From the NCBI GenBank assembly GCA_017558715.1, contig JAFYTT010000299.1:1-61327 (forward strand): 61,327 bases of DNA. Direction: 5' to 3'. The stretch is from Clostridia bacterium. Its GTDB lineage: Bacteria; Bacillota; Clostridia; Oscillospirales; CAG-272. Within the stretch, counting starts at the first letter, position 1. Every line of letters begins with the position of its first letter. Below, one piece after another: positions 1-55,059 of the stretch. A model generated the notes under the pieces. The model was not told where the DNA came from, made no database searches, and saw nothing but the letters and a program-made list of their open reading frames with translations. Both the position numbers and the translations under genes were made by a program.

Positions 1-141
1 CTACTACCTCGCAAAGCTCCTCGAAGAGAGCGTCCCGGAGGTTGACGGCACAGAGGAAGATGCAGAGCGCGTAGCAAACGAGCTCCTGGCGCTCAAGGCA
101 GAGCTGGGACTTTAAGGAAGGAGGCGCTGATGATTTACACC
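1..141. repeat. Terminal direct repeat copy 1 (identical to 61187..61327)
   Basis: ctactacctcgcaaag...gctgatgatttacacc is present at both ends. It carries the 3' end (stop 113-115) of CDS 60846..61301 and the RBS/start of CDS 130..321. Confidence 0.95.
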
Positions 142-321
142 CTCGAAAAGCGCCACTCCTTCGCCGGCGGTCAGATGTTCACCCATTACGAGGTAATCGA
201 ATACAAAGGGCGCATCGGCGCCGCCGGCATTCTGACCAACGGCAAGACGGTCAAGCAAGGAACCCTGGCGCAATGCGAAAAATACTGCCGCACCAAAGGC
301 ATCACACCAGAAAGAATATAA
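130..321 (+). CDS. Hypothetical small protein (63 aa)
   Basis: ATG preceded by aaggaaggagg. Part of a tightly packed + strand operon. No recognisable motif. Confidence 0.6.
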   Translation: MIYTLEKRHSFAGGQMFTHYEVIEYKGRIGAAGILTNGKTVKQGTLAQCEKYCRTKGITPERI

Positions 322-333
322 GGAGGAGCAAAC

Positions 334-570
334 ATGAACTTCACAGACAAACACGGCACACCCATCCAGGCAGGTATGACCATCAGACACGACAACGGCG
401 ACACCGAAAAGGTGTACGCCACCACGACGGCGTCCGGAGACGAAAGCCTCGGCGTCATGGCGACGAATCCCGCATACCTGAAGAACCACCCAGACTGCGA
501 GATCGAATACTACGACCTCTCCAACTTCAACCTGAAGGAGTGGGAGATCGTCCAGGAGGTGCAGCCATGA
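334..570 (+). CDS. Hypothetical protein (78 aa)
   Basis: ATG preceded by aaggagga. Abuts neighbouring genes. Confidence 0.6.
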   Translation: MNFTDKHGTPIQAGMTIRHDNGDTEKVYATTTASGDESLGVMATNPAYLKNHPDCEIEYYDLSNFNLKEWEIVQEVQP

Positions 571-743
571 AGCAGATGATCCTGACCGTACCCCTCAAAG
601 AGGGCGAGAAGATCCCCGCGACCATTCTCGTAGCAGCAAGCCGAATCGCCGGCGCCGTAGCCGATACCGTGAGCCACGTCGAGATCCACGACGAAGACGG
701 CCGCACGTACACACTCACCAGACCGAAGGAGGCAACAGTATGA
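567..743 (+). CDS. Hypothetical protein (58 aa)
   Basis: In-frame ATG at 567 overlaps the upstream stop (ATGA). The longer track ORF 273..743 would overlap two supported genes. Confidence 0.5.
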   Translation: MKQMILTVPLKEGEKIPATILVAASRIAGAVADTVSHVEIHDEDGRTYTLTRPKEATV

Positions 744-1039
744 GCCAAAGAGAACGTATGCTGCGGGAGGTCAAATACATAACCTCCTGCGAGGAATTCA
801 CACCGGAAGACATTGTCGATCACCTTCTGTATCGCGGGGCGCTTATGCCGCCCTGCCCGATCGGAACCAAGATATACATCCTGGTAACCAAGCGACCCAA
901 AATCACCTACCCGGAATTCACGTTCATAAAGGAATCGCACCTCACCTACTACAACCTGGAGCGCGTCCTGGCGGAATTCGGAAAGACCGTATTCCTCGAC
1001 TACGAGGCAGCGAAAGAAGCAAAGGAGAAGATGAAATGA
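740..1039 (+). CDS. Hypothetical protein (99 aa)
   Basis: ATGA overlap with the upstream gene, suggesting translational coupling. Confidence 0.6.
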   Translation: MSQRERMLREVKYITSCEEFTPEDIVDHLLYRGALMPPCPIGTKIYILVTKRPKITYPEFTFIKESHLTYYNLERVLAEFGKTVFLDYEAAKEAKEKMK

Positions 1040-1449
1040 ACCTCAAGCAAGCGATAACCGTGCTCGACAGCACGATCCCACCGTCGAACAACAAGATGGT
1101 GGACTTGGAGCACCTCCCGATCGCCCAGGCGTGGGAGACCATCAAAGCCGCCCTGAAATTAGGGCAAATTCAGACCGAAGGCAGACTGACCGCGTACAAC
1201 GACGGACTGCCATACTTCCCGGAGTGCTTCAAAGAGCCATGCTCCGGAATGGGATGCAAGAAGAAGGACTGCGAATTCATGACAGACGTCTGCAGGAAGC
1301 TCGCCGTCTTCGAGGACGAAGAGGAAAAGAGGGACCGCATCAAGCGCGAACAATGCTGTATGTGCCCCGGTGCAATATGCCCAGGCATACCGGGAACGCC
1401 GCACCCAGAAGCGTCCCCTTGTAGATTTTTTGAGGAGGAAAAGAAATGA
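1036..1449 (+). CDS. Hypothetical Cys-rich protein (137 aa)
   Basis: ATGA coupling. Multiple Cys clusters (CSGMGCKKKDC, CCMCPGAIC). Confidence 0.6.
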   Translation: MNLKQAITVLDSTIPPSNNKMVDLEHLPIAQAWETIKAALKLGQIQTEGRLTAYNDGLPYFPECFKEPCSGMGCKKKDCEFMTDVCRKLAVFEDEEEKRDRIKREQCCMCPGAICPGIPGTPHPEASPCRFFEEEKK

Positions 1450-2000
1450 ACATCGAACTCACACCCCGCGAGCAGGAAATGCTCGCAGCATTCGCAGAGA
1501 AGCAGCACGACGGAGCAAAGGACAACATCGGCACCATGACGCCCATCCACGTTGTGGAACGCATCCGCAAGGAATACGTAGAAAGCGAAGAAGGCGACGC
1601 ATGGCTGTGGACCGACGACTACGAATGGAAGACCTTCGACAGCTTCGACGAAATGCTGAACCACGCGAGAAAAGCCACCCAAAAGGAATACCCCCCATAC
1701 GAAGAGGTCGAATACGAGGAAGTGGACGACGTCTGGATCGAGAGCGAGAAAACCTACTGCAAAGCATACGGCATCAAAGCCTACCCTTGCAAAATGGTCC
1801 AGTGCACAGAACCGGTCGCCTTCTTCTTCATCAGAGACGAAGCGGTAAAATACAAGGAGGGATACCAGGCGCACAACTGCGCCGACTGCAGAATTTATAC
1901 ATACGGCCTCGGATATAGCAACAACGGAGACCTGCCGGTATTCCGCGCCCTGCTCATGAGAATGGGCGAAACCATCAACGCCGAAAAGGAGGGCAAATGA
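1446..2000 (+). CDS. Hypothetical protein (184 aa)
   Basis: ATGA coupling. Acidic central region. No recognisable motif. Confidence 0.6.
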   Translation: MNIELTPREQEMLAAFAEKQHDGAKDNIGTMTPIHVVERIRKEYVESEEGDAWLWTDDYEWKTFDSFDEMLNHARKATQKEYPPYEEVEYEEVDDVWIESEKTYCKAYGIKAYPCKMVQCTEPVAFFFIRDEAVKYKEGYQAHNCADCRIYTYGLGYSNNGDLPVFRALLMRMGETINAEKEGK

Positions 2001-2503
2001 TGAAAAACAACGACATTCTTCCCGGAGGAAGACTCACAACGGACGACCCGACCAATAACACTCAAACAATGCTCAATTACGCCTACGCAAAAGACGGTCG
2101 CGTACTTCTGCGCTACGGCGACGGAGAAGAAGACATCGACCTCTGCGAATACATTTCGAGAGAGGCTGCCGGCAAGCATTGCCGACCGACCCCGGAGGAG
2201 ATCATGGAGGGCGCCTGCTTGGAATGCGACTGTCCGCTCGCCATCCTCTACGTTGTCGCCACGCAAGCTGCAGAGCTCCGTGCAAGGTTGAAAGAATACG
2301 AGGACACCACCGAACGCCACACACCGCAACGCCCGGAATTCTGGGGCGACGGATACGACGAAAACGGCGAGCTCATATACGACCAGGCGAAATGCCCGAA
2401 CTGCGGCAACGACGACTTCGAGGAGGGCATAAACAACTGGGGATGCAAATTCTGCCCGGACTGCGGTCAGGCATTGGACTGGGGTGAAGCTGGTGAATCT
2501 TAA
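1997..2503 (+). CDS. Hypothetical protein with C-terminal zinc-ribbon (168 aa)
   Basis: ATGA coupling. CPNCG...CKFCPDCG motif near the C-terminus. Confidence 0.6.
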   Translation: MMKNNDILPGGRLTTDDPTNNTQTMLNYAYAKDGRVLLRYGDGEEDIDLCEYISREAAGKHCRPTPEEIMEGACLECDCPLAILYVVATQAAELRARLKEYEDTTERHTPQRPEFWGDGYDENGELIYDQAKCPNCGNDDFEEGINNWGCKFCPDCGQALDWGEAGES

Positions 2504-2711
2504 AGAAGCAACCGAGGTAGCCAAGCAGCGCCTGCCGGTCATCCATAACGGAATCGAATACCTTCGCATCAAGCAGGCGGGGTACGATTACGACGACCAG
2601 GGCAACCCGACGCCCTTCGTGCAGCTGCTCGACAAATGCAAGCACAGCGTATCATACGCCGATCCGGCGAGAGTAACACTAAAGGAGGAACCGCCATGTA
2701 CAGAATCGTGA
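2484..2711 (+). CDS. Hypothetical protein (75 aa, GTG start)
   Basis: Track ORF with a GTG start and weak RBS. Fills the gap between supported genes. Confidence 0.4.
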   Translation: MKLVNLKEATEVAKQRLPVIHNGIEYLRIKQAGYDYDDQGNPTPFVQLLDKCKHSVSYADPARVTLKEEPPCTES

Positions 2712-2848
2712 GATACTACAACGGCACCAAAGGCTACGGCCGCAAATTTGAAACAGAAAAGGAAGCGAGAGACCACATCGCCACGGATCCGAAGATCCAG
2801 CAGGACATCGAGGACGGCTTCAGCTTCGACGTGGAGGAATGCGACTGA
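2696..2848 (+). CDS. Hypothetical protein (50 aa)
   Basis: ATG at 2696 preceded by aaaggagga, in frame with track ORF 2636..2848. Confidence 0.5.
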   Translation: MYRIVRYYNGTKGYGRKFETEKEARDHIATDPKIQQDIEDGFSFDVEECD

Positions 2849-3066
2849 TGGGAAAAACATACAAAGTCAAAGTGCAGCGCCCCATCTTCCCCGAAGGAGC
2901 ACCGGCGCTCATTTACAGCAAATGCGGAACCATACCGCCCACCCACCTACCGCTCGAAGGTCCCCTCAAGGACGCCCTGGGCGACCGCGACAAGGCATAC
3001 TTCAGATGCCGCGTCGAAGGGACGCTCCTGGTGCTCCTGAAGGAGCTGCGCCACCAGAACTGGTAG
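2848..3066 (+). CDS. Hypothetical protein (72 aa)
   Basis: ATG 2848 (TGATG overlap) lies 9 nt after GGAGGA at 2833-2838. The track start 2839 abuts the SD directly. Confidence 0.5.
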   Translation: MGKTYKVKVQRPIFPEGAPALIYSKCGTIPPTHLPLEGPLKDALGDRDKAYFRCRVEGTLLVLLKELRHQNW

Positions 3067-3084
3067 AAATCCCAAAAAGCGAGA

Positions 3085-3100
3085 TGTTCCACGTGAAACA
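3085..3100. promoter_or_regulatory. parS: parS site, exact match to the B. subtilis Spo0J/ParB centromere 16-mer TGTTCCACGTGAAACA
   Basis: The 16-mer is read directly in the 3067-3179 intergenic gap. It is identical to the published spo0J parS (consensus TGTTNCACGTGAAACA). Confidence 0.8.
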
Positions 3101-3120
3101 CTCGACTACCGAGAAACCCA

Positions 3121-3149
3121 TTGAAAACAGAGCCGGAAAGTGATATAAT
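3121..3149 (+). promoter_or_regulatory. Sigma-A type promoter (TTGAAA - 17 nt - TGnTATAAT)
   Basis: -35 TTGAAA at 3121-3126, 17-nt spacer ending in tga, -10 TATAAT at 3144-3149. Lies 30 nt upstream of the RHH gene start. Confidence 0.6.
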
Positions 3150-3179
3150 AAACCAACGGCTGAAAAGGAGGAGATCGCA

Positions 3180-3401
3180 ATGGCATACGGAAGACCCATG
3201 AAGAACAAGACCAGGCGCGTACCGGTCACGGTACACATCCCCGTCGGTATGCTTGACCTCATCGACGACTACGTCGAGAAGCACAGCGAGGAAACCGAAA
3301 CCGCATACAGCCGGTCAGACTTCTACAACGAAGCAGCGGTGGCTTTGCTTCAGAGCAAAGGCGTGGACGTCGACGAAGACGGAAGCGTAACAAAAGCGTA
3401 A
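3180..3401 (+). CDS. Ribbon-helix-helix (CopG/Arc-like) DNA-binding protein
   Basis: RBS aaaaggagga. The N-terminal RRVPVTVHIPVGMLDLIDDYVEK...SRSDFYNEAAVALL pattern fits beta strand - helix - helix. Confidence 0.55.
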   Translation: MAYGRPMKNKTRRVPVTVHIPVGMLDLIDDYVEKHSEETETAYSRSDFYNEAAVALLQSKGVDVDEDGSVTKA

Positions 3402-3594
3402 CAGAAAAATCGCAAGCCGAAACCACCAGAGACAATAGAGATAATAGAGGCACGAAATGCACCAGAAAACACGACACAAAACCTCGTGCCAACCCGCTAC
3501 GAAAGAATGGGAATAAGAACCAAAAAGCCGTAACCCCTTGAAAATAAAGGGATTACGGCTTTATTTTTTTACCCAGCGTACCAAAAGCGTAACA
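3384..3594. other. Candidate attP region with paired arm-type repeats AGCGTAACA
   Basis: AGCGTAACA at 3384 and 3395. AGCGTACCA at 3575 and AGCGTAACA at 3586. Each pair has 11-bp phasing, and the pairs flank the intergenic region immediately 3' of int. Confidence 0.35.
3521..3570. terminator. Bidirectional rho-independent terminator
   Basis: Stem agccgtaa(c)ccctt / aaggg(a)ttacggct, flanked by an A-run on the left and ttattttttt on the right. Sits between convergent genes. Confidence 0.7.
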
Positions 3595-3596
3595 CT

Positions 3597-4709
3597 TTAC
3601 TGCAGATCCTCGATTTTTCTCTCGAACTCCGAGACCACACCAGCGTAATTCTCACCCTCGGAAGTTTCCAGCCGGGAGGAGACCTCCTCCTGCTTATCCG
3701 GATACAAATGCGAATACGTCTGCAGCGTCGTCTGGATGTTTTCGTGCCCCAGGCGTTCAGACACCAGGAGCGGAGAGAAACCCATCTCGATCAGAAGCGA
3801 AGCGTGGGAGTGCCGGAGGTCGTGAACGCGGATCCGTTTCACGCCTGCAGCTTTGCTACCACTCGCCATTTCATTCGTGAGGACGTGCTTCGTGAAATAG
3901 AAGAGACGATCGCGCGGCTCATAGTCCACCAGCTGATCGGCGTAGTCGCGGATCAGAGCCAGGACGAAACGAGGAACCGAGACGACACGGTTCGAGCGCG
4001 GCGTCTTCGGAGGCTGGATAACCGTCTCCCCTTTGACCTGCGCTGCCGTTTTATTGATGGAGATGCGCGACCGCTCGAAGTCCACGTCCAGGAGCGTCAG
4101 AGCCAGAAGCTCCCCGGACCGCATACCAGTCCAGAACAGCAACTCGAAAGCCAGCCTCGCGGCTGGTTTTTTTACGCACTCAATGAACCGGCGGAATTCA
4201 TCCCGCGTCCAGAACTGCATCTCATCCGCCGTCTTTTTCCCGAAGGGACCACACACCACGACCGGATTTGACGGCAACCCATAGAACCGGACGGCATAAT
4301 TCATCACCGCCGACATTTGATTATTGACGGTCTTCAGATACGTGGGAGAATACCCCGCAGGATCCGCGAGGAGATCGTTCTGCCAGCGGCGAATCATCGT
4401 GGGCGTGATTTCGTTCACCGGCACCGACCGGAACGTCGGTAGAATTTTAGAATCGAAGAGCCAGCGCTTATTCTCATACGTCGTCGGGCGAAGCCGAGTG
4501 GCGCAATCCTCCATGTAGAGCTCCACCAGGGAGCCGAAGGACATATCGGTACCGCCGCCCTTCTTCTTCAGGAATTCCCGCTCATACTCCAGAGCCTCCC
4601 GGCGCGTTTTGAATCCTTCCTTCTTTTTCTGCCGGCGCGTGCCGTCCCAATCCTTATACCGGAACGAGACGAACCACGTGCCGCGTTTTTCATTTTTATA
4701 GACCGGCAT
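3597..4709 (-). CDS. int: Tyrosine recombinase / phage integrase
   Basis: C-terminal RVHDLRHSHASLL...LGHENIQTTLQTYSHLY (R-H-R-Y catalytic signature). ATG at 4709 preceded by ggaaggagg. Confidence 0.9.
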   Translation of the reverse strand: MPVYKNEKRGTWFVSFRYKDWDGTRRQKKKEGFKTRREALEYEREFLKKKGGGTDMSFGSLVELYMEDCATRLRPTTYENKRWLFDSKILPTFRSVPVNEITPTMIRRWQNDLLADPAGYSPTYLKTVNNQMSAVMNYAVRFYGLPSNPVVVCGPFGKKTADEMQFWTRDEFRRFIECVKKPAARLAFELLFWTGMRSGELLALTLLDVDFERSRISINKTAAQVKGETVIQPPKTPRSNRVVSVPRFVLALIRDYADQLVDYEPRDRLFYFTKHVLTNEMASGSKAAGVKRIRVHDLRHSHASLLIEMGFSPLLVSERLGHENIQTTLQTYSHLYPDKQEEVSSRLETSEGENYAGVVSEFERKIEDLQ

Positions 4710-4734
4710 CAGACCGCCTCCTTCCTTTGCACAG

Positions 4735-4824
4735 TACAAGCACGGTGCTTTCCGCGCCTTATCCCTTAAACCTTAAACTTCAAACCTCATCCCTTAAATG
4801 GGGTACCTCAACCCTCAAACGCGG
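4735..4824 (+). repeat. Copy A of a two-copy element: 14-mer TACAAGCACGGTGC plus a 70-nt G-depleted CCTTAAAC-type array
   Basis: 4755-4824 aligns without gaps to 25821-25890 (55/70 identical by hand). Both are preceded by TACAAGYACGGTGC. The only G-run is the central TGGGG. Confidence 0.7.
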
Positions 4825-5302
4825 AACGGTTCCGCAGGACGTAGTCGCGGACATACCAGTCAAAGAGAACCAGCAGCACACCAACGACGCCACCCAGAAT
4901 CAGGTTGACGACCGCCATGACGATCAGCCAGACCTTCCGACCTTCAAAGTACGGAACGACGTGCGGATTGCCGGGCGTGATATTTTTACAATTCCGAAGA
5001 GCCACAATGGCATTGATAACATTCCAGACGCCTGCGGCCGCAGTATAGACCATGAGCAGCTGTACAACGCCGATCAGAAGCCAGGCAACACCGGAGACAA
5101 CCTCGCAGCGCTTCGCCTTCAGAGCGACCGCAGCGGGACCAGATACCGGCGCCTTCTTCTGCTTCACCGTTTGCCTGATCGTCACCGAGTACGGAGCCGA
5201 GCACCCAGGGCAGCTGACAGAATAAACGCCTGCCGCGTTCGGAACCTCGACGGAATACCGGCGGCGGCAGGACGGACACATTATATTCACTTTAACCAAC
5301 AT
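4808..5302 (-). CDS. Zn-ribbon / multi-pass membrane protein (lysogeny-module accessory gene)
   Basis: CPSC...CPGC at the N-terminus followed by about 3 hydrophobic helices. Located between int and the repressor. Confidence 0.6.
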   Translation of the reverse strand: MLVKVNIMCPSCRRRYSVEVPNAAGVYSVSCPGCSAPYSVTIRQTVKQKKAPVSGPAAVALKAKRCEVVSGVAWLLIGVVQLLMVYTAAAGVWNVINAIVALRNCKNITPGNPHVVPYFEGRKVWLIVMAVVNLILGGVVGVLLVLFDWYVRDYVLRNRSAFEG

Positions 5303-5346
5303 ACCACCTCAATCCCAAAAGACAAAATACCGCCGAAGCTGACGCT

Positions 5347-5754
5347 TCAGGCTTTCTTTTTGAAGTCGATGAAGTTTTTACCAGACTGAACTTCATCAAG
5401 CGTTTTGAGCATTTCGATATACTCCTCCGCTTTTTCGCGAGCTTCATCAGAAAGACCTTCCAGCATCTCGTGGACGTCAGGATCGGAAGCGATAGCTGGA
5501 GCGGCCGTGGAAGTACCAGCGGCGCCGACGCTTTCTGGAGCGTGCCCCATTACCGGAGACAACCCCAGGATATAATCAGCGGACACGTCATACAAACGAA
5601 TGAGCTCCTGGATCGTGTCCGGGTCCGGAGCCGAGGAATTAGTTTCATAGCGAGACAAAGACTTGTCGCTCAAGTTGATAAGAGCCATAACCTGCTTCTG
5701 GCTCAAGCCTTTTCTCTCGCGTGCCTTCTTCAGGCGTTCGCCGAAAGACAACAT
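5347..5754 (-). CDS. XRE-family HTH repressor (cI-like)
   Basis: MLSFGERLKKARERKGLSQKQVMALINLSDKSLSRYETN is a classic HTH_3 pattern. ATG at 5754 preceded by aaaggtggg. Divergent from the cro-like gene. Confidence 0.8.
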   Translation of the reverse strand: MLSFGERLKKARERKGLSQKQVMALINLSDKSLSRYETNSSAPDPDTIQELIRLYDVSADYILGLSPVMGHAPESVGAAGTSTAAPAIASDPDVHEMLEGLSDEAREKAEEYIEMLKTLDEVQSGKNFIDFKKKA

Positions 5755-5776
5755 AGTATCCCACCTTTCAAGAGTA

Positions 5777-5805
5777 ATTATAGCACGCTTCCCGATTTTT
5801 GAGAA
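5777..5805 (-). promoter_or_regulatory. Candidate repressor-maintenance promoter (TTCTCA - 17 - TATAAT on the minus strand)
   Basis: Reverse complement shows TATAAT (5777-5782) and a weak -35 (5800-5805), about 22 nt upstream of the repressor ATG. Confidence 0.4.
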
Positions 5806-5811
5806 TATATT

Positions 5812-5827
5812 TCTCGGAATTTGCGAA
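5812..5827. promoter_or_regulatory. Degenerate operator (tctcggaatttgcgaa)
   Basis: The left arm TCTCG is conserved and the right arm is imperfect. Lies between the divergent promoters. Confidence 0.3.
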
Positions 5828-5834
5828 AAAGGTA

Positions 5835-5863
5835 TTGACATCTCGGAAAACGAGTGTTATAAT
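5835..5863 (+). promoter_or_regulatory. Early rightward promoter, perfect consensus TTGACA - 17 - TATAAT
   Basis: -35 at 5835-5840 and -10 at 5858-5863. Drives the cro-like gene. Confidence 0.75.
5841..5855. promoter_or_regulatory. Operator TCTCGGAAAACGAGt (inside the promoter spacer)
   Basis: Inverted repeat CTCG-N5-CGAG. One of at least 5 near-identical copies. Confidence 0.5.
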
Positions 5864-5875
5864 GAGAGCAAGAAT

Positions 5876-5890
5876 TCTCGGAAAGCGAGA
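5876..5890. promoter_or_regulatory. Operator TCTCGGAAAGCGAGA
   Basis: 15-bp palindrome-type site just downstream of the -10. Confidence 0.5.
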
Positions 5891-5909
5891 GAAAGGAGGA
5901 AGCAGCACA

Positions 5910-6155
5910 ATGAAAAAAGTCCATCAGATGATGAGAGACTACCGCGAGAGCAAAGGCGTCTCCCAGTCCCACATCGCCAGGAAGACCAGGAAAAGCTCCC
6001 AGAGAATCAGCGCGCTCGAAAATGGCAACATTCGCCTGACCGCAGACGAATTCGTGGACATTTGCGTGAACGGTTTCGAGATTTCCCCGGCTATTTTTTT
6101 TACCATTGCACTCTCGGAAAACGAGAACAGCAACGTGGACCTTCCCTCTGATTGA
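5910..6155 (+). CDS. Cro-like XRE-family HTH regulator
   Basis: ATG 5910 preceded by gaaaggagga. MRDYRESKGVSQSHIARKTRKSSQRISALENG is an HTH pattern. The track start 5799 would read through the promoter. Confidence 0.75.
   Translation: MKKVHQMMRDYRESKGVSQSHIARKTRKSSQRISALENGNIRLTADEFVDICVNGFEISPAIFFTIALSENENSNVDLPSD
6112..6126. promoter_or_regulatory. Operator TCTCGGAAAACGAGA (within the 3' end of the cro-like gene)
   Basis: Perfect 5-bp arms TCTCG/CGAGA. Confidence 0.45.
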
Positions 6156-6199
6156 GAATCCTTACACTAAAATTATACCGAAAGGAGGCAGGAAAATAT

Positions 6200-6694
6200 A
6201 TGCCTAAACTCGCTACGAAAGCCAGCGACAACGAATTCTACAAAGCACGACTCGCGGCTTCATCGTGCAACGACAGACTGGCAAGCCGAGAAGGAGCATC
6301 CGAAGAGACCGGCATTGACCGCACTCGCCTGGCGAGAATCGAACTCGGAAGCCTGAACCCTTACCCCGAAGAGGTTCTGCTCATGGCGGACACCTACGAC
6401 GCGCCCCAGCTTGCGAACTTCTACTGCTCAAAGATGTGCCCACTCGGAAAGAAGACGGTGCCTCCTGCAGAGATGCGAAACATAGACCGATTGACGATCA
6501 GGATCATCACCGCGCTCGGAGAAGCCAACGAGATCCGCGACTCCATTCTCGAAGTGGTAAAGGACGGAGTGGTAACCGGAGAGGAAGCACCCAGGATCCA
6601 GGCAGTCGTCGCAGCGCTCGACCAGATAGCCATCACAGCGCAGGAGCTGAAGATGTGGGTCGGAAAGAACCTCAAAGAAGGAGGCAGCAAATGA
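6200..6694 (+). CDS. HTH-domain regulatory protein (164 aa)
   Basis: ATG 6200 preceded by aaaggaggcagg. SREGASEETGIDRTRLARIELG is an HTH-like segment. Confidence 0.5.
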   Translation: MPKLATKASDNEFYKARLAASSCNDRLASREGASEETGIDRTRLARIELGSLNPYPEEVLLMADTYDAPQLANFYCSKMCPLGKKTVPPAEMRNIDRLTIRIITALGEANEIRDSILEVVKDGVVTGEEAPRIQAVVAALDQIAITAQELKMWVGKNLKEGGSK

Positions 6695-6876
6695 AGAAAC
6701 CAGAAGAAGACAAAAAATACCTTCGAGTGACCGAGGTCGCCTCCCTCCTCGAAGTGAGCGAGAGCCGCGCCTACAAGATTATGCGCCAGCTCAACAAGGA
6801 GCTCGAAAAACAAGGCAAGATAGTAACAGCCGGAAGAATTTCAAAGCGGTACCTCATGGAGAGGCTCTACTGCTGA
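6691..6876 (+). CDS. Excisionase-family/MerR-like HTH DNA-binding protein (61 aa)
   Basis: KYLRVTEVASLLEVSESRAYKIMRQL is typical of small excisionase-type HTH proteins. RBS gaaggagg. Confidence 0.5.
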   Translation: MKKPEEDKKYLRVTEVASLLEVSESRAYKIMRQLNKELEKQGKIVTAGRISKRYLMERLYC

Positions 6877-6889
6877 AAGGAGAAACGAT

Positions 6890-7510
6890 ATGAAAAGAAA
6901 GATAACCTCCCTGATTATGGGAATAGCAATAGGAATCATCCTCACGGCGCTGATTATGAGCGCAGGAGGAACCGCAGCATCGAACAAAGCAGACCTTCAG
7001 ACCCCGGACGTCGACCTGGTGCTGGCGCCGCAGGACGGCAACGCAGGAACCGGCGACTACGAGATCACCCACCTGGTCTACAAAACCGAAACCGAGCAGC
7101 CATTCTTCACACCGAACGAAGCCGACGTCGAAATGCTCGCCAAGACGATCTGGGGCGAGGCTCGCGGAGTGGAATCCATCACAGAGAAGGCGGCGGTCGC
7201 CTGGTGCATACTTAACCGAGTGGACGCCAAAGGATACGCCTGCGGCGGCGACATCGAATACGTCCTGACCTTCCCCGGACAATTCGTAGGATACGACGAA
7301 GACAACCCGGTAACAACCGAATGCAAGAAAATAGCGGCAGACGTCCTGGCAAGATGGGCAGCCGAAAAGGCAGGCATCGAAGATGTGGGCAGAGTGCTGC
7401 CAAAAGAATACACCTACTTCACCGGCGACGGCGAGCGGAACTATTTCACAGACGAATGGAAGGGCGGCAACACCTGGGACTGGAGCCTTCCTTCACCATA
7501 CGAAAAATGA
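6890..7510 (+). CDS. SleB-like cell wall hydrolase with N-terminal membrane anchor
   Basis: N-terminal TM (ITSLIMGIAIGIILTALIM). LAKTIWGEARGVES...AVAWCILNRV...PGQFVGY matches the Hydrolase_2/SleB signature. Confidence 0.7.
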   Translation: MKRKITSLIMGIAIGIILTALIMSAGGTAASNKADLQTPDVDLVLAPQDGNAGTGDYEITHLVYKTETEQPFFTPNEADVEMLAKTIWGEARGVESITEKAAVAWCILNRVDAKGYACGGDIEYVLTFPGQFVGYDEDNPVTTECKKIAADVLARWAAEKAGIEDVGRVLPKEYTYFTGDGERNYFTDEWKGGNTWDWSLPSPYEK

Positions 7511-7524
7511 GAGGAGGCACAAAA

Positions 7525-7803
7525 ATGAGAGAGGAAGAGATCAGAGATGAAGCCTGCAGCTTCCTCGGAAGAGAAATCACCGACGAAGAGTGGAACGAAG
7601 CATACCCGGCAGCCAAGCGAAAACTTGACTGGATCATCAGTCGGGAAGGCGATGCAGACGGCGAAAGGCTCAAGCCTTACTACCTCGGCAAGCTGGTCGA
7701 GGAACACATCAACCAGAACACATTCAGCCGCTGGTGTAGAGAGATGAGCCAGTTCAACATGGAAAGGAGAAGAACACATGAAACTGTTGCAGCTTACACT
7801 TAA
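7525..7803 (+). CDS. Hypothetical protein (92 aa)
   Basis: ATG 7525 preceded by gaggaggc. In frame with track ORF 7321..7803. Confidence 0.5.
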   Translation: MREEEIRDEACSFLGREITDEEWNEAYPAAKRKLDWIISREGDADGERLKPYYLGKLVEEHINQNTFSRWCREMSQFNMERRRTHETVAAYT

Positions 7804-9775
7804 CAACTTCCAGGGCATCAAGACCCTGACATTCGACTTCGAGGGCGGAAAGAGCGCCAGCATTTACGGCGACAACGCCACCGGAAAGACAACGGTCTAC
7901 AACGCCATCACCTGGCTGCTTTTCGATAAAGCCAGCACGGCCGCGAAGAACTTCACGCCGAAAACCAAAGGACCGGACGGAGACCTTCACAACCTGGAGC
8001 ACAGCTCGGAGGGCGTCTTTGAAATGGACAACGGCAGGATCGTAACCCTGAAGAAGACCTTCAGAGAGGTGTACAAGAAGAAGCGCGGCAGCGCACACGA
8101 AGAATTCGATGGACACACCGTCGAGTATTCGGTGGACGGCGTACCGGTCAAAGAGAAGGAATTCACCGCAACCGTCCTCGGCTTTTGCGGAGGCGATCAG
8201 GAAAAGCCGAAGATGCTCACGATGCCCGACTACTTCCCGGAACAGCTCGCATGGGATACCCGCCGCAAGATCCTCCTGGAGATTTGCGGAGACATCATCG
8301 ACGACGAAATCATCGCCGGCAACAAGGAGCTGAAAGAACTCCCCGACTTCCTCCGAATGCCCGGCACCGCAGAACAGTACCACACCCCCGAAGAATACCG
8401 CAAGGTAGCCTCCGCAAAGAAGGCGGACATCAACAAACAGCTCGAAGGCATTCCCGCCAGAATCGACGAAGCCGAGAGAGCGATCCCGGACACCGCAGGA
8501 CTTGACGCCGAGGAAATCGACCGCAACATCGCGGCGCTTTCAAAGAAACTCGACGACCTGGCGATCGAGAAGGCGAACGCAGCCACCGGCGGTACCGCCA
8601 CGGCGGAACTTCAGAAGAAGGTCGCAGAGCTCAAGACTGAAATCGCGGAAGGCAGAGCCGCCCACACCAAGCGCCAGAACGAAATGACGGCAGACATCGA
8701 CGCCGACATCCTTCTCGCCAAGAGAGAGGCATCGGAAGCCAGACGCACGGTCGAGGACATCGAGGAAGATATCCGAAGAGCCGAAGCGCAGCTCAAGCGC
8801 CTGCGCGACCTCCGCACACAGCTGCTCGCAGACTACGACCGCATCAGCAAGGAAACGTGGGACGAAAGCCAGTCGGTATGCCCGACCTGCCACCAGAGCC
8901 TCCCTGCAGATCAGATCGAGAAGATGCGCGAGGAATTCAACCTCCGCAAGAGCAAAAAACTGGAGGACATCAACCAGCGCGGAAAGACCGAGGCAAGCAA
9001 GACGGCGATCGCCGAGCTTGAAACCAAAATCGCAACCCTTACCGCCTCCCTGGAGGAAGCCAAGCAGAAGAAGGCAGACGCCGAAGCGAAGGTCGCAGAC
9101 CTGGAAGCCAAGCGCCCTGCGCCTACGGTTTACGAGACAACCGCTCAATACCTCGCCCTGACCGCCCAGATTGCCGAAATTGAGGAGAAAATCGCTGACG
9201 AAGGAAAATGCACGACCGAAGCGGTAAGCGCCGTAGAAGCCAAAATTCGCGCCACAAAGGACGCCATCCGCGAGGAGCAGGATAAACAGATGCAGCTGAC
9301 GACGGCAGAAAACCAGCGCCGCCGCATTGCCGAACTGGAACGCCAGGAAGAACGCCTCTCCGGAGAGTACGAGGAAATCGAAAAAGGTCTCTACCTTTGC
9401 GACCTTTTCACAAAGGCAAAGGTAGCCGCCCTCACCGACAGAATCAACGGCAAATTCCAGAGCGTCCGCTTCCGCCTCTTCCAGGAGCAGCTGAACGGCG
9501 GACTCAAAGAAGACTGCGAGGTAATGATACCGGCGGCCGACGGCAGAATGGTACCGTATACCTTCGCCAACAACGCGGCGAGAATCAACGCAGGACTGGA
9601 GATCATCGGAACCCTTTCGGAGCACTGGGGACTCAAGATGCCGGTCTTCATTGACAACGCCGAGAGCGTGACACACCTCACGCAGACCAGCACACAAACA
9701 ATCCGCCTGGTGGTAAGCGAGGCAGACAAGAAGCTCCGCATGGAGGTGGAGCACGGTGCTGATATTCCCGATTAA
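7778..9775 (+). CDS. Rad50/SbcC-like AAA ATPase with coiled coil and CxxC zinc hook
   Basis: N-terminal Walker A (GDNATGKTT), a long Glu/Lys/Ala-rich coiled coil with a central CPTCHQ, and a C-terminal FIDNAES signature. Confidence 0.8.
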   Translation: MKLLQLTLNNFQGIKTLTFDFEGGKSASIYGDNATGKTTVYNAITWLLFDKASTAAKNFTPKTKGPDGDLHNLEHSSEGVFEMDNGRIVTLKKTFREVYKKKRGSAHEEFDGHTVEYSVDGVPVKEKEFTATVLGFCGGDQEKPKMLTMPDYFPEQLAWDTRRKILLEICGDIIDDEIIAGNKELKELPDFLRMPGTAEQYHTPEEYRKVASAKKADINKQLEGIPARIDEAERAIPDTAGLDAEEIDRNIAALSKKLDDLAIEKANAATGGTATAELQKKVAELKTEIAEGRAAHTKRQNEMTADIDADILLAKREASEARRTVEDIEEDIRRAEAQLKRLRDLRTQLLADYDRISKETWDESQSVCPTCHQSLPADQIEKMREEFNLRKSKKLEDINQRGKTEASKTAIAELETKIATLTASLEEAKQKKADAEAKVADLEAKRPAPTVYETTAQYLALTAQIAEIEEKIADEGKCTTEAVSAVEAKIRATKDAIREEQDKQMQLTTAENQRRRIAELERQEERLSGEYEEIEKGLYLCDLFTKAKVAALTDRINGKFQSVRFRLFQEQLNGGLKEDCEVMIPAADGRMVPYTFANNAARINAGLEIIGTLSEHWGLKMPVFIDNAESVTHLTQTSTQTIRLVVSEADKKLRMEVEHGADIPD

Positions 9776-10214
9776 GAAGACCTGGTTCGACATGATCGAC
9801 AAGGGCATCAAGAAGGAGGAGTACCGAGGAGACACACCATACTACCGGGCGAGGCTTGAGCCTTTCCTGGGGCAGGAGATAGAATGCAACCTCCGAAACG
9901 GATACTCCTCGGCTTCACCCACCCTCAAAATCAGAGCCAGGATAGAAAAAGGAACCGGCAACCCAGACTGGGGCGCTGAACCCGGCGAGGTTTACTACAA
10001 GCTGGTGATCCTCGACAAAGAGCGCATCGAGCCGGAGACCTTCATAATCAAAGCCAGACGCTGCAAACGATGCGGCGGACTGCTCACCAGCAAGCAGGCA
10101 GTCGAGGACGGATACGGCCACGTCTGCAAGATGAAAACCAAAGCGGAAATCGAAGCCGCGACACCAGACCCTAATCAACTAACGCTCTTCGATACCTTCG
10201 AGAGCGAAGAATAA
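9756..10214 (+). CDS. ASCH-like domain protein with C-terminal CxxC...C motif
   Basis: GTG start preceded by ggaggtgga. IFPIKKTWFDMIDKGIKKEEYR resembles an ASCH N-terminus. C-terminal RCKRCGGLLTSKQAVEDGYGHVC. Confidence 0.45.
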   Translation: MLIFPIKKTWFDMIDKGIKKEEYRGDTPYYRARLEPFLGQEIECNLRNGYSSASPTLKIRARIEKGTGNPDWGAEPGEVYYKLVILDKERIEPETFIIKARRCKRCGGLLTSKQAVEDGYGHVCKMKTKAEIEAATPDPNQLTLFDTFESEE

Positions 10215-10237
10215 AAAACAAATTGGAGGATTTAACT

Positions 10238-11305
10238 ATGGCAGCAACAACAAAGAAAAACGAACTCACCCCGACCCAGGGAGCCGAACTGGCGCCCCAG
10301 AAAGCAGAACAGCTCGCGACCAGCGAGAAATTCACAAACAAGGTCCTGATGGAATTCGGAGGCAGCGTCGCCGGAGCGATGCAGGTGACCGACTACCAGA
10401 GGACGCTCATCCAGGGATACTTCATCGTAATCGACCGCGCCCTCAAGGCAGCCGAGGAAGAACGTATCCGCAAGAATGAGAACAACAAGAACCACGACTA
10501 CGACAACAACCTCCCGATCAACTGGAACACGGTCAATCTGAACGACCTCGCCCTCGACCTGGTACACTACGCGAGAATGGGACTGGACATGACGCAGGAC
10601 AATATGCTCTTCCCGATCCCTTACAAAAACAACAAGCGCAACATTTACGACGTCACCCTCATGGAAGGCTACAACGGCATCCGATACATCGCAGAGAAAT
10701 ACGCGGTCGAGGTTCCGACAGCGGTCACCATTGAGGTAGTATACAGCACCGATAACTTCCGCCCCATCAAGAAGGGCAAAGACAACCGCGTAGAAAACTA
10801 CGAATTTGAGATCACGAACGCCTTCGACAGAGGCACGATCGTCGGCGGCTTCGCTTACCTGGAATTTGCAGACCCCACCAAGAACGAGCTCATCATCATG
10901 TCGATGAAGGACATCGAGAAGCGCAAGCCGAAATACGCCAGCGCGAACTTCTGGGGCGGCAAGCAGAAGGTATGGGAAAACGGCAAGCAGGTCGAAGTCG
11001 AGACCGAAGGCTGGCTCGACGAAATGGTTCGCAAGACCATCATCCGCGAAGCCTTCAGCGCAAAGCACCTGCCGAGAGACCCCAAGAAGGTGGACGACAG
11101 CTACCAGTACATGAAGATGCGCGAGGCGAGATACGCCGAGATCGAAGCGCAGGCAGAAATTGCAGCCAACGCCAACGCGACACTCATCGACACCTCACCG
11201 GTGGTCGCAGAGCTTCCTGCAGGCACAAAGGTCGACACAGAATCAGGAGAAGTTATCGACGCCGGATCGGCAGCACCGGCAGACGGAAGCGGCCCTGACT
11301 TTTGA
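10238..11305 (+). CDS. recT: RecT-family single-strand annealing protein
   Basis: ATG 10238 preceded by ggagga. Overall RecT-like pattern (LIQGYF, MEGYNGIRYIAEKY, IMSMKDIEKRK). Located in the recombination module. Confidence 0.8.
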   Translation: MAATTKKNELTPTQGAELAPQKAEQLATSEKFTNKVLMEFGGSVAGAMQVTDYQRTLIQGYFIVIDRALKAAEEERIRKNENNKNHDYDNNLPINWNTVNLNDLALDLVHYARMGLDMTQDNMLFPIPYKNNKRNIYDVTLMEGYNGIRYIAEKYAVEVPTAVTIEVVYSTDNFRPIKKGKDNRVENYEFEITNAFDRGTIVGGFAYLEFADPTKNELIIMSMKDIEKRKPKYASANFWGGKQKVWENGKQVEVETEGWLDEMVRKTIIREAFSAKHLPRDPKKVDDSYQYMKMREARYAEIEAQAEIAANANATLIDTSPVVAELPAGTKVDTESGEVIDAGSAAPADGSGPDF

Positions 11306-12006
11306 TGGAGATAACGGTCATCGCGTCCGGCAGCACCGGCAACGCCTATCGAATCAGCGATGGGCAGACCGCCGTCCTGCTGGACGCGGGAATCCCGCTC
11401 AAGGTTATTCAGAGAGCGCTCAACTTCCGGGTGCGTGACCTTTCAGGCTGCCTGATTACACACGCCCACGGAGACCACGTAAAAGCCGCAGGAGACCTCG
11501 CAAAGGCAGGGGTAAACATTTACACCAGTCAGGGCACGATCGGCGCCTGCAGGCTTTCAGGGCACCGGATAAAGGCGGTCAGAGCGCTCGAAGAATTCCA
11601 GGTCGGCACGTTCGCGGTGCTACCATTCGACGTACAGCACGACGCACCGGACCCCCTGGGATTTCTGATAACCTCAAGAACAACCGGCGAAAAGCTCCTA
11701 TACTTCACCGACACCTACTACATCAAGTACCGCTTCGAAGGACTGACCCACATCATGGGCGAGTGCAACTACTCAATGGACATCATCGAGCAGAGCGTCC
11801 GGAACGGATACATACCACCGGAACTCGTACCCAGACTGGTCAAGAGCCACATGAGCCTGGAGCATTTCACCGACCTACTAAAAGCAAACGACCTACGACA
11901 CGTCAAGCAAATATACCTGCTGCATTTGAGCAACAACAACAGCGACGCCGACCGCTTCAAAGAGGCGGTGCAGAAGCTGACCGGAACGGAGGTATATGTA
12001 TGCTGA
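11305..12006 (+). CDS. Metallo-beta-lactamase fold hydrolase (probable recombination nuclease)
   Basis: ITHAHGDH zinc-binding motif. TGATG overlap with recT. Confidence 0.8.
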   Translation: MEITVIASGSTGNAYRISDGQTAVLLDAGIPLKVIQRALNFRVRDLSGCLITHAHGDHVKAAGDLAKAGVNIYTSQGTIGACRLSGHRIKAVRALEEFQVGTFAVLPFDVQHDAPDPLGFLITSRTTGEKLLYFTDTYYIKYRFEGLTHIMGECNYSMDIIEQSVRNGYIPPELVPRLVKSHMSLEHFTDLLKANDLRHVKQIYLLHLSNNNSDADRFKEAVQKLTGTEVYVC

Positions 12007-12024
12007 AGAAAGGAGGAAGCGAAA

Positions 12025-21274: not shown

Positions 21275-21863
21275 ATCGAGCATGGGAGTCGTAGCAGCAG
21301 GCTATGCGGCGGTCGGGGCGAGGGTGCTGGAAGTCGCCACCGCTCGCGGAATCGAAATCGGCATCAGAGCGGCGATGGACTACCTGGCAGAGGAAAAGGA
21401 AAAGGCAAGGAAGAGCCGATACGACCGCAGACTCCGCAACACCAGACTGCTCCTGAAGAATTACCGCTCCTTTAAGAGACACGCCCAGGGCGCCATTTTT
21501 AACGCCAAGCAGGCAAAGGAGAACGCGATCGACATCCTGGACGGACTGGACGACGGAATGCTCAACGACAACCTCTACGTCGAAGGCATCAAGAAGAGCC
21601 AGCAGCGCACCATCATCATCCTGAACCACGTGGAAGAAATGCTCCGCTACTACCGAATCGCCTGCGAACAGTCAGGCAAGGAAGAAGAAATGCGCCGCTA
21701 CCGCGTCATCATGGCGATGTACATTGACGACGACAAAATGACTGCCCAGGACATAGCGGAAAAAGAGAACATCGAAGGGCGCACCGTTTACAAAGACATC
21801 ACCAACGCCATAAAGCCTTTAAGTGCCTTAATCTTCGGTATTGACAGCATCAAAATCGAATGA
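21264..21863 (+). CDS. Putative late-gene transcriptional regulator (ArpU/RinA/sigma-70 region-4-like)
   Basis: Position immediately upstream of the packaging genes. C-terminal TAQDIAEKENIEGRTVYKDITNAIKPL HTH resembles sigma region 4. Confidence 0.4.
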   Translation: MDSKSSMGVVAAGYAAVGARVLEVATARGIEIGIRAAMDYLAEEKEKARKSRYDRRLRNTRLLLKNYRSFKRHAQGAIFNAKQAKENAIDILDGLDDGMLNDNLYVEGIKKSQQRTIIILNHVEEMLRYYRIACEQSGKEEEMRRYRVIMAMYIDDDKMTAQDIAEKENIEGRTVYKDITNAIKPLSALIFGIDSIKIE

Positions 21864-21874
21864 AACCAGCACCA

Positions 21875-21888
21875 TACAAGCACGGTGC
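21875..21888 (+). promoter_or_regulatory. Intergenic copy of the 14-mer TACAAGCACGGTGC
   Basis: Identical to 4735-4748 and 13/14 identical to 25779-25792. Embedded in the hairpin gcacc-N10-ggtgc. Confidence 0.4.
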
Positions 21889-21951
21889 AAAATGTGGGCA
21901 TTTAATCGGCAAAAGAAAAATGATAAAATGATAGCATGGAGGAATGGACAA

Positions 21952-23601
21952 ATGGCAAAAAAGAAGACCAAGAACACCTTCATCGGGATAGACTACGAGA
22001 CCTCCGCTACACCGAAAGCCACCACGGCTGACGGTGTGCCGGTCTTTTGCGCTCACGACGAACTACTCGCCATCGCAAAAGTTATCCCGAACCCGAAGAA
22101 CCCGAACCAGCACAGCGACGATCAGATCGCCCTGCTGGGCAACATCATCGAGGCAAACGGCTGGAGACAGCCGATAACCATCAGCAAGCGCAGCGGCTTT
22201 ATAGTGAAAGGACACGGACGCCTGGCTTCAGCCATCAAGAAAGGCTGGAAAGAAGTCCCCATCGACTGGCAGGAATACGCCAGCGAGGCGGAGGAATGGG
22301 CAGACCTTATCGCAGACAACCGCCTGGCGGAACTTTCCACGATCGACAACACGAAGCTCATCGACATGATCGCAGACCTGGACACCGGAGAGGTGCCGGT
22401 CGAGCTTACCGGTTATACCGAGGAAGACATCGCCGCCATCATTGCAGCTTGCGAAGGAGCAGACGACACGGTGGACGACAAAGCCGACGCCGTGGCTCCT
22501 GCAGATAACATCCCTATGACCAAAGCAGGCGACCTCTGGTGCCTGGGTCCGCACCGCCTTATTTGCGGCAGCGCAACCGACGAAAAGACCGTCGAGCGAC
22601 TGATGCAGGGCGAGAAGGCGGACATGGTCAACACAGACCCGCCCTACGGCGTGAGCTACGAAAGCCAGAGCGGCAAATTCGACATGATCCAGAACGACGA
22701 CCTCACCGGCGACGATCTGATGAAGACGCTGCTCATTCCGGCATTCAAGAACTACGCCAAATTCACAAAGGACGATGCAGCCTTCTACATCTGGCACGCC
22801 AGCAGCACCCGCCGCGACTTTGAGGACGCGATGACAGCTGCAGGACTTGTCGAGAAGCAGTACATCATCTGGGTGAAGAACGCACCGGTACTCGGACACG
22901 CCGACTACCAATGGGCACACGAACCGTGCTTCTATGCGGAAAAAGCGGGACAAAGCGCACACTTCTACGGAGACAGAGCGCAGAGAACCACCTGGAAGGT
23001 AGTCCTCCGCGACGAAGACGGTACAGCAACCGTGCTCTCCGGAGGTGTAGTCCTTACCGACGGAGCCGGAAACAAGCTCTACCTGGCAGACAAGGTGCCG
23101 AAAGGCAAGAAAATACGGTATATCCGGCTCTCGGAAGGACGGAGCGTCACGCTGTACTCGACGGAGTGCGACCGTTCCACCGACACGTGGGAGGTCTCAC
23201 GTGAGACAAAGACCGAGCACCCCACACAGAAACCCGTGGAGCTCGCAGTCAGAGCCATCGACAACAGCACCGAGGCAGGCAACCTCGTGATCGACTTCTT
23301 CGGAGGATCCGGCAGCACACTACGCGGCGCCGAACTCACCGGAAGACGATGCAACACCATCGAACTCGACCCCAGATACTGCGACGTTATCGTAAACTCC
23401 TACGTCAAGCTCACCGGAAACATCGGTGTAACGTGCGAAAGGGACGGAGAAATCCACCAGTACGTAGAGCTCAAAGAGGAGAACGAAAAAGCCAACGGAA
23501 TCGCGGGGGGGGGGGTACTTGTCAGCCTCTGGAGAGCCGCAAGGCGAACCTTCCGACTGATAGCGAGGACGATCCGCCGCAAACTGAATAAAACCCATTG
23601 A
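21952..23601 (+). CDS. ParB N-terminal (ParB/Srx) domain fused to an N6A/N4C DNA methyltransferase
   Basis: N-terminal IVKGHGRLASAIK ParB-like arginine-patch region. Methylase motifs NTDPPYG (IV), TEHPTQKP and VIDFFGGSGST (I). ATG 21952 lies 8 nt after GGAGGA. Confidence 0.85.
   Translation: MAKKKTKNTFIGIDYETSATPKATTADGVPVFCAHDELLAIAKVIPNPKNPNQHSDDQIALLGNIIEANGWRQPITISKRSGFIVKGHGRLASAIKKGWKEVPIDWQEYASEAEEWADLIADNRLAELSTIDNTKLIDMIADLDTGEVPVELTGYTEEDIAAIIAACEGADDTVDDKADAVAPADNIPMTKAGDLWCLGPHRLICGSATDEKTVERLMQGEKADMVNTDPPYGVSYESQSGKFDMIQNDDLTGDDLMKTLLIPAFKNYAKFTKDDAAFYIWHASSTRRDFEDAMTAAGLVEKQYIIWVKNAPVLGHADYQWAHEPCFYAEKAGQSAHFYGDRAQRTTWKVVLRDEDGTATVLSGGVVLTDGAGNKLYLADKVPKGKKIRYIRLSEGRSVTLYSTECDRSTDTWEVSRETKTEHPTQKPVELAVRAIDNSTEAGNLVIDFFGGSGSTLRGAELTGRRCNTIELDPRYCDVIVNSYVKLTGNIGVTCERDGEIHQYVELKEENEKANGIAGGGVLVSLWRAARRTFRLIARTIRRKLNKTH
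23505..23515 (+). repeat. Homopolymeric G11 tract in the 3' end of the methyltransferase ORF
   Basis: tcgc + 11 consecutive G + tactt, counted directly. Confidence 0.95.
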
Positions 23602-54164: not shown

Positions 54165-54186
54165 AAGGCGCAGCCGCAATCCTAAA

Positions 54187-54215: not shown

Positions 54216-54236
54216 ACCAGGAAGAAAGGAGAAACC

Positions 54237-55031: not shown

Positions 55032-55059
55032 AAAGGAGACATCGGGTGGCGTTCTGTCA

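Follow-up and report, generated by a model that had tools for sequence, protein, structure and literature searches.

The Bacillus phage phi29 carries five copies of the parS site of its host, and the host protein Spo0J takes part in bringing the DNA of the infecting phage into the prespore (as related in PMC2731898, citing Meijer et al. 2005). We have analyzed a parS-like 16-mer, TGTTCCACGTGAAACA, at positions 3085-3100 of contig JAFYTT010000299.1 from a Clostridia bacterium. The window, meaning the whole stretch of 61,327 nucleotides (nt) that was analyzed, looks like a complete temperate phage genome. On the basis of sequence comparisons we propose, at a probability of roughly 0.55, that the 16-mer is a selected loading site for the chromosomal ParB (Spo0J) of the host in temperate phages of gut Clostridia. 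This estimate was reached because a perfect parS is expected to be occupied in cells with a canonical ParB, and because a match of an ordinary operator to the parS core would be very improbable. By analogy, the finding fits best as a variant of the known phi29 strategy, one that belongs to a temperate phage and relies on a single site linked to a promoter. To judge from the account in PMC2731898, phi29 and Nf resemble the phage described here in carrying host parS without a ParA or ParB of their own, the host of phi29 being a Firmicute with Spo0J and Soj. phi29 differs in being a small and strictly lytic podovirus whose linear, protein-primed genome has five sites and Spo0A boxes. The phage described here is temperate, has an integrase gene and 61 kb of DNA, bears one site immediately upstream of a promoter where the prophage ends, and infects gut Clostridia instead of Bacillus. 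According to the initial annotation, a lone host-type parS had no described role in phages of this kind. This was too strong, because phi29 uses host parS with Spo0J and, together with Nf, provides a precedent in the source named. Our literature search found no host-type parS for any integrating temperate phage.

The 16 bp are identical to those of chromosomal parS in B. subtilis and other bacteria (PMC7022226), and the same nucleation, CTP clamp formation, sliding and contact with ParA and SMC would be expected. Unlike chromosomal parS, the phage site is neither origin-proximal nor clustered, lies away from parAB, and is carried on a mobile element that inserts at several chromosomal sites. 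The integrative element SGI1 carries mimics of the parS of its IncC helper plasmid, along with a small enhancing protein, Sci (PMC10954446). It also lacks partition proteins of its own and uses copies of another replicon's parS, and the ParAB of that replicon, for its stability; however, the ParB that it targets is that of a plasmid and not of a chromosome, it has two sites, and it is a mobilizable island of Gammaproteobacteria. P1, N15 and the extrachromosomal actinophages are likewise temperate phages with a ParB-parS complex for genome inheritance, but they encode their own ParA and ParB, have a cognate non-chromosomal parS and are usually without an integrase. In the KorB-OB system of RK2, a ParB-family protein acts at nearby promoters. 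Spreading of pneumococcal ParB represses comCDE and leaves a constitutive synthetic promoter unaffected (PMC4488948), and P. aeruginosa ParB represses the promoters beside parS3 and parS4 (PMC5521831). All these cases share with ours a parS-type palindrome near a promoter, where clamp spreading can dampen transcription. The effects of chromosomal ParB on promoters are weak (PMC4488948), whereas the promoter at our locus is near-consensus.

The 16-mer matches the parS reference consensus TGTTNCACGTGAAACA from PMC7022226 at 16 of 16 positions and has the core, GTTNCACGTGAAAC, of a chromosomal-type parS; the parS consensus of B. subtilis is identical to it (PMC7022226). With up to 3 mismatches allowed it has a single match in the 61-kb window, the second match listed being the same near-palindrome on the opposite strand. 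By arithmetic, an exact match is expected about 3e-5 times (2 x 61327 / 4^16), in line with the earlier estimate of about 1e-5 for 2 x 61 kb. On the plus strand of the window the surrounding bases read …GCGAGA-TGTTCCACGTGAAACA-CTCGAC…. The features of the locus are given below, with an open reading frame abbreviated as ORF, lengths of proteins in amino acids (aa), and RHH standing for ribbon-helix-helix.

2848..3066, plus strand: 72-aa ORF upstream of parS; its stop codon lies 18 nt before parS.
3085..3100, no strand given: host-type parS TGTTCCACGTGAAACA, 16/16 to TGTTNCACGTGAAACA, with the 14-bp core GTTCCACGTGAAAC at 3086-3099.
3113..3149, plus strand: promoter of the RHH-like gene, made up of a conserved GAAACCCA block, a -35, a 17-nt spacer and an extended -10.
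3180..3401, plus strand: gene for the 73-aa RHH-like protein, with the ribosome binding site GGAGG at 3167-3171.
3383..3404, no strand given: tandem AAGCGTAAC repeats (repeat scan D5), probable integrase arm-type sites forming the left attP arm.
3509..3517, no strand given: attP crossover region; the phage sequence ends …TGGGAATAA in three integrated copies.
3524..3562, no strand given: strong hairpin with a 16-bp stem, between the RHH-like gene and int.
3597..4739, minus strand: tyrosine integrase (Pfam Phage_integrase, SAM_3 and Arm-DNA-bind_4); the likely start gives a protein of 370 aa, ending at 4709.

The gap that holds parS is 113 nt long, between the stop of the upstream ORF at 3066 and the start of the next at 3180. 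parS ends 20 nt before the -35, and its centre lies near -64. The promoter consists of TTGAAA (3121-3126), the 17-nt spacer and TATAAT (3144-3149), the last preceded by TG (TGaTATAAT, 3141-3149), and scores 11/12 in a consensus scan. The initial annotation had described an exact Spo0J/ParB site in a 113-nt gap, 20 nt upstream of a -35 and about 300 nt from a putative attP, in a phage encoding an integrase. The ORF coordinates, the promoter scan and the Pfam matches bear out each of these points; the distance from parS is about 285 nt to the attP arm and about 417 nt to the crossover.

Searches of viral, genome and metagenome collections with the integrase and the RHH-like protein as queries yielded diverged relatives of the locus. 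The exact 16-mer is present in 9 of the 10 close copies read, the tenth (L252) having the change A16G, and bases a few positions away vary. It occurs both in free phage contigs of about 61 kb and inside the prophage in integrated copies; the site is thus phage-borne. At the syntenic position, where conservation had been proposed as a check, the diverged lineages have between 14 and 16 matches, with a weaker site in L151 and none in L196. The individual sites are listed here with the nucleotide identity to the window; MAG denotes a metagenome-assembled genome.

L166 (Eubacteriales MAG): protein 55% identical, DNA about 74%; TGTTCCACGTGAAACA, 16/16.
L125, L156 and L174 (equal to one another): about 73%; TGTTTCACGTGAAACT, 15/16.
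L163: 15/16.
L165: about 69%; GGTTTCACGTGAAACT, 14/16, core intact.
L152, L164 and L171-173: about 70-75% (L164; the others not aligned); ATTTTCACGTGAAACA, 14/16.
L151: ATTTTCACGTTAAACA, 13/16.
L196: promoter kept, palindrome lost.

The 14-bp core is kept in 4 of 5 lineages, and every lineage that keeps the site has it 18-20 nt upstream of the -35. The homology of L125 to the window starts at the first base of parS. Mean pairwise identity, calculated with one representative for each of 5 lineages, is 0.87 for the parS core, 0.93 for the -35 box and 0.91 for the extended -10 box, compared with 0.63 for the rest of the gap and 0.46 for the promoter spacer, so that the core is conserved beyond its surroundings. 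The right half of parS is among the three best-conserved blocks in the gap. Most substitutions fall at parS positions 1, 5 and 16, which also differ between the parS sites of B. subtilis, S. pneumoniae (AGTTTCACGTGAAACT) and M. smegmatis (GTTTCACGTGAAAC) (PMC7022226, Table 1). Since the core is conserved and the changes are located at positions that parS tolerates, chance and neutral persistence are poor explanations for the site.

Partition proteins were sought among about 40 ORFs outside the structural block, which were scanned with Pfam or PHROGs. No ParA and no ParB with a helix-turn-helix (HTH) was found among them, and hence no self-encoded ParABS cassette of the P1, N15 or actinophage type. 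This inventory agrees with the initial one, as does the nature of the only ParB-related sequence found in the phage:

21841..23601, plus strand: fusion of a ParB N-domain (CTPase fold) to an N6/N4 DNA methyltransferase (Pfam/PHROGs, structure alignment).

The 'ParB-like' families of PHROGs match residues about 74-230 of this ORF, and the methyltransferase domain follows. Its alignment to Spo0J structures covers Spo0J residues 7-111 only and does not include the HTH, leaving the protein without the part that reads parS. Fusions of this kind are typical of phages (PMC12704722). The idea that the 16-mer is the target of this methyltransferase was rejected as unlikely because the fusion protein lacks the parS-reading HTH.

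Three of the 10 close copies are integrated (L252, L258 and L260). In these the junction between phage and host lies at about 3516/3517, and the host flank differs in each. L252 is found in Ruminococcus sp. RGIG2074, on the same contig as L163, and L258 in assembly GCA_054285245.1; GCA_017410265.1 is another assembly of a host. The integrated copies are carried by Ruminococcus and by Oscillospiraceae or other Clostridia MAGs, which identifies the hosts as Clostridia. Related copies of the AAGCGTAAC repeat at 3573-3598 (D2, D6) mean that the crossover is flanked on both sides. From the position of the junction, the order in the prophage is late genes, small ORFs, parS, promoter, RHH-like gene and attR. 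The hairpin at 3524-3562, called as a terminator on the minus (int) strand and also followed by a T run on the plus strand, lies on the int side of the crossover and is therefore separated from the RHH-like gene in the prophage. The host flanks of near-identical copies, whose RHH-like protein is the same, have a G+C content (GC) of 40%, 46% and 52%, compared with 55% for the phage. The three different flanks suggest an unusually broad host range or several attB sites, although MAG chimerism may also play a part. Their genes include an amylase and a his-operon, or GH26, GH130 and F420-ligase genes; the amylase of one flank has a CBM26 and is R. bromii-like, and the GH26 and GH130 genes lie together in another. 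Origin-proximal integration was rejected, as no origin-like feature was seen in the host flanks. The cultured species R. bromii, which is related and belongs to the bacterial group of one of the hosts, sporulates and encodes several genes of the soj and spo0J families (PMC5814915), and a chromosomal parB is present in 84% of bacterial orders (PMC12704722). Cultured relatives of the phage were sought among 50,697 GenBank phage genomes by megablast of positions 1-8000 and by tblastn of the RHH-like protein, with no match.

Recruitment of host ParB appears to be the most economical reading of the 16-mer, because the site is phage-borne and conserved, the phage has no ParA or ParB, and its hosts are Clostridia. 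On these points the earlier interpretation stands. It is corrected by the precedent of phi29 and Nf and by the dispensability of the element, and it gave little weight to a promoter-linked role; the uses that it put forward (episome segregation, silencing of attP/int, an ectopic centromere) are candidates. We envisage that, in any host with a canonical ParB, dimers of that protein would nucleate at the phage parS, close into CTP clamps and slide onto the flanking DNA. A partition-type complex would then form on the free circular phage genome, and after integration the ParB complex would sit about 420 bp inside the right end of the prophage. To argue from phi29, and from the report that parS stabilises plasmids in B. 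subtilis, the likeliest benefit would be that the ParABS/SMC machinery of the host carries non-integrated or excised genomes along into daughter cells or forespores. A second effect, plausible by comparison with pneumococcal comCDE and KorB, would be that ParB occupancy modulates or insulates transcription of the RHH-like gene; such a promoter-linked role is raised because of the constant spacing of 18-20 nt and the inheritance of the site as a module with a small gene. The phi29 precedent, the sporulating hosts and the universality of parS across apparently diverse hosts favour hitch-hiking, and the fixed spacing and modular inheritance favour modulation of the promoter or insulation of the prophage end. 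Either benefit may apply. A more far-reaching view would make the near-universal centromere copy a host-independent cis element for segregation or spore entry, an ectopic ParB/SMC site, and the switch of a ParB-gated, lysogen-expressed RHH regulator that reads the cell cycle or sporulation; we regard this as doubtful.

Several observations weigh against a role in ParB loading. There is a single site in 61 kb, compared with five in phi29, and half-parS sites in the window are at chance level, with no enrichment. Spo0A boxes (TGTCGAA) number 8 where 9.6 are expected, and none lies in the cI/cro immunity region. No origin marker and no second parS was found in 10 kb of host flank; the phage site stands alone, without the nearness to an origin and the clustering seen in chromosomal sites. 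A phage that integrates has no evident need to segregate as an episome, and strong promoters are seldom affected by chromosomal ParB (PMC4488948). An operator for an ordinary transcription factor could also account for the fixed position near a promoter. Lastly, the site has been degraded in L151 (13/16), is absent in L196, and has been lost without apparent harm in L121, L122 and L123, sister phage contigs from three different samples with about 91-95% nucleotide identity, all of which have the same clean deletion of 188 bp:

3060..3247, no strand given: segment missing in L121, L122 and L123 (BLAST coordinates, alignment).

With this segment go parS, the promoter and the first ~23 codons of the RHH-like gene, and the upstream 72-aa ORF is joined to what remains of that gene in what looks like the same frame. 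L121-123 form a natural knockout lineage. Because they lack it, the parS module is dispensable; on the ParB reading it would be beneficial but not essential.

The gene downstream of parS was examined in the same collections. The 73-aa protein has no match in Pfam or PHROGs. Its AlphaFold2 model has a strand-helix-helix topology (pLDDT 78), the best hit of a profile search against the PDB is MazE6 at E=0.3 only, and Foldseek against the PDB gave no significant match. The RHH gene of the initial annotation is thus supported by predicted topology and not by family or structural matches, and the label, which rests on a model, is plausible but provisional. That the protein is linked to ParB as Sci is to its own system would be pure conjecture. 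In all, 31 homologs were found. The identical 73-aa protein occurs in 347 sample blocks, many of them on contigs of about 60-61.5 kb; the phage carrying the parS module is widespread and abundant in gut Clostridia. parS, the promoter and the RHH-like gene make up a self-contained module at the right end of the prophage. The RHH-like gene ends within the left AAGCGTAAC pair, which supplies its final residues (…VTKA) and its stop codon; longer homologs of ~104 aa read through this region.

Elsewhere in the wider family, the RHH-like gene mostly stands behind an ADP-ribosylglycohydrolase-like or another gene and has no promoter of its own. At more than 70 such loci no parS-like site was found in the 1-12 kb around each; the best matches had at least 3 mismatches and were never upstream of the gene. 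This distribution shows that the palindrome goes with the promoter and not with the RHH-like protein as such. In most family members (L157-L161, L167, L169 and L175-L250) the homolog lies directly behind the ADP-ribosylglycohydrolase-like gene with no gap. That gene has the C-terminal motif …GAWYGY..IP..W…, and the pair is a conserved two-gene unit in phage-like contigs.

Exact copies of the parS 16-mer were also counted in other viral contigs. There are at least 120 such contigs in IMG/VR, with at least 105 distinct sequence contexts, compared with 5 and 19 contigs for two dinucleotide-matched shuffled controls. A centre-swapped control 16-mer is, among the matches listed, as frequent as parS (at least 52 contexts), and for this reason the global enrichment of parS in IMG/VR, which is suggestive but not decisive, is not relied on here. 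Since 47 of the 120 listed sites are inside long open frames, the set is mixed and isolated matches do occur. No Spo0J or Soj homolog was found within ~6 kb on each side of the 120 listed loci, and a search for an integrase near the other listed sites gave no match. Strong promoter-like sites within 100 nt are similarly rare for parS (4/111) and control sites (3/115), which indicates no general link.

The evidence reviewed so far must be set against three other explanations of the 16-mer. It could be an ordinary operator for the adjacent promoter, bound by the RHH-like protein in autoregulation of the Mnt/Arc kind or by a host regulator, its identity with parS being coincidental or irrelevant. 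Such an operator would be expected to show what is seen in every lineage, a fixed distance of 18-20 nt between the site and the -35 downstream of it, with the centre of the site near -64. The site is furthermore inherited with the promoter and gene (start of homology in L125) and deleted with them (L121-123), and it is absent wherever a homologous gene lacks a separate promoter. Directly beside the -35 stands a third block, GAAAC, which resembles a half-site and is likewise conserved, and of the two halves of the palindrome the right one has been kept better. The identity with parS itself speaks for ParB instead: a random palindrome of 14-16 bp would be expected to match the universal parS core at about 1e-4 or less, substitutions follow the tolerance of parS at positions 1, 5 and 16, and in a host that encodes ParB, that protein would in any case occupy a perfect parS. 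The operators of RHH autorepressors usually cover the -35 or -10, but this site stops 20 nt short of the -35. Since more than 70 homolog loci elsewhere are without a parS-like site in the 1-12 kb around each, the palindrome is unlikely to be the operator of the RHH-like protein, whose homologs keep the N-terminal strand motif RRVP[VI]T[VL]H also in contexts without the palindrome. It also speaks against an operator that the genome, the immunity region included, has no second copy of the site. We leave this explanation an appreciable but minor share of the probability. Among specific regulators, a cI operator was rejected because no similar sequence (up to 3 mismatches) exists elsewhere in the 61 kb, and comparison by eye with cre, Rex, CodY, LexA and Noc motifs found no fit.

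The 16-mer might instead be an unselected passenger, either host DNA caught at attP by imprecise excision or a promoter-linked relic. It lies ~420 bp from the crossover, in the kind of place where captured host DNA and morons accumulate. Its loss in the deletion lineage and in L196 and its decay in L151 are as expected of a dispensable passenger, and exact parS copies do occur in at least 120 IMG/VR contigs, 47 of the 120 listed being in long open frames. Neutral drift, however, would by a rough estimate keep 13 fixed positions with a probability of ~0.72^13, or 1-2% per lineage, and the core has been kept in 4 of 5 lineages at ~25-30% nucleotide divergence. The core is conserved like the promoter hexamers, and the flanking spacer falls to 0.46-0.73; moreover, the surrounding gene family is phage-associated and not host-derived. 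We thus consider a passenger quite improbable. A pure chance match finds some room in the many windows that were scanned at the first stage, among which an event of 3e-5 could occur somewhere, and in the centre-swapped control that was as frequent as parS among the IMG/VR matches listed. The shuffled controls, in contrast, turned up in no more than 5 and 19 viral contigs, parS in at least 120, and syntenic conservation in independent lineages together with 9 of 10 close copies effectively excludes chance, which we hardly credit at all. Loading of host ParB at the phage site accordingly remains our preferred reading, with the estimate given at the outset.

A number of viral contigs in the parS set merit separate mention. 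L074 (parS at 1734) and L090 (parS at 6039) are unrelated contigs in which an exact parS lies 23-24 nt upstream of a sigma-70-like promoter of a small gene; this layout is no commoner than for the control 16-mer across the 111 evaluable sites. Contigs of ~11 kb such as L036 (IMGVR_UViG_3300045988_004033) encode a protein-primed DNA polymerase, an encapsidation ATPase, an upper collar connector and a major head protein, and on account of these genes are phi29-like podoviruses. L036 has exact parS sites at 252, 294, 11475 and 11517, and the phi29-like contigs have pairs of sites 42 bp apart in both terminal inverted repeats; similar contigs are L007, L044, L057, L058, L068, L076, L081, L088 and L117. 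No Spo0J or Soj homolog was found in contigs of this type, which represent the known phi29 situation recovered from metagenomes. The first ~33 nt of L036 resemble a sequencing adapter. L054 (IMGVR_UViG_3300037518_000322; 116 kb, GC 0.65) has 11 exact parS sites within 5 kb, at 8906-13863, and may be a plasmid or the origin region of a chromosome wrongly classed as viral, or else a large element that carries an array of centromeres.

The window as a whole has a GC content of about 55-57% and no tRNA genes. The minus strand encodes the integrase, followed by a Zn-ribbon membrane protein and a cI-like repressor. Early genes on the plus strand comprise a cro-like gene, an SMC-like ATPase, RecT, an MBL-fold protein, a replication initiator and a DnaC-like loader; these are followed along the genome by RecU, MetK, SSB, the ParB-N-domain methyltransferase, the terminase and the structural genes. 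The last part contains a diversity-generating retroelement (DGR), a lysin and a run of small ORFs, and then parS and the RHH-like gene. The ATPase is a 665-aa SMC/RecF-like protein (7778-9775) at the head of the early operon, next to RecT and the MBL-fold protein, and MetK (16716-18080) is a full-length S-adenosylmethionine synthetase. The DGR extends over 48045-56715 (to 56718 with the reverse transcriptase). Its variable repeat (54017-54158) lies at the 3' end of a 2039-aa DUF6273 tail-fibre-like ORF and is 85% identical to the template repeat at 55060-55201; the accessory ORF (264 aa) is located at 54237-55031 and the reverse transcriptase at 55384-56718.

In the phi29 paradigm, a phage copies the centromere of its host instead of encoding a partition system. 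If host ParB does load at the site described here, this paradigm would extend from a few lytic Bacillus podoviruses to large temperate phages, and it would reach the abundant Clostridia of gut and rumen in a single-site, promoter-linked format. Because parS is nearly universal, such a site would plausibly be a broad-host-range device. The deletion lineage, together with the graded variants from 16/16 to 13/16, amounts to a ready-made natural allelic series. Were host ParB to load at the phage site, lysogeny would also give the host chromosome an ectopic site for ParB/SMC loading, its position varying between lysogens, and lysogenic conversion would thereby act on the architecture of the chromosome.

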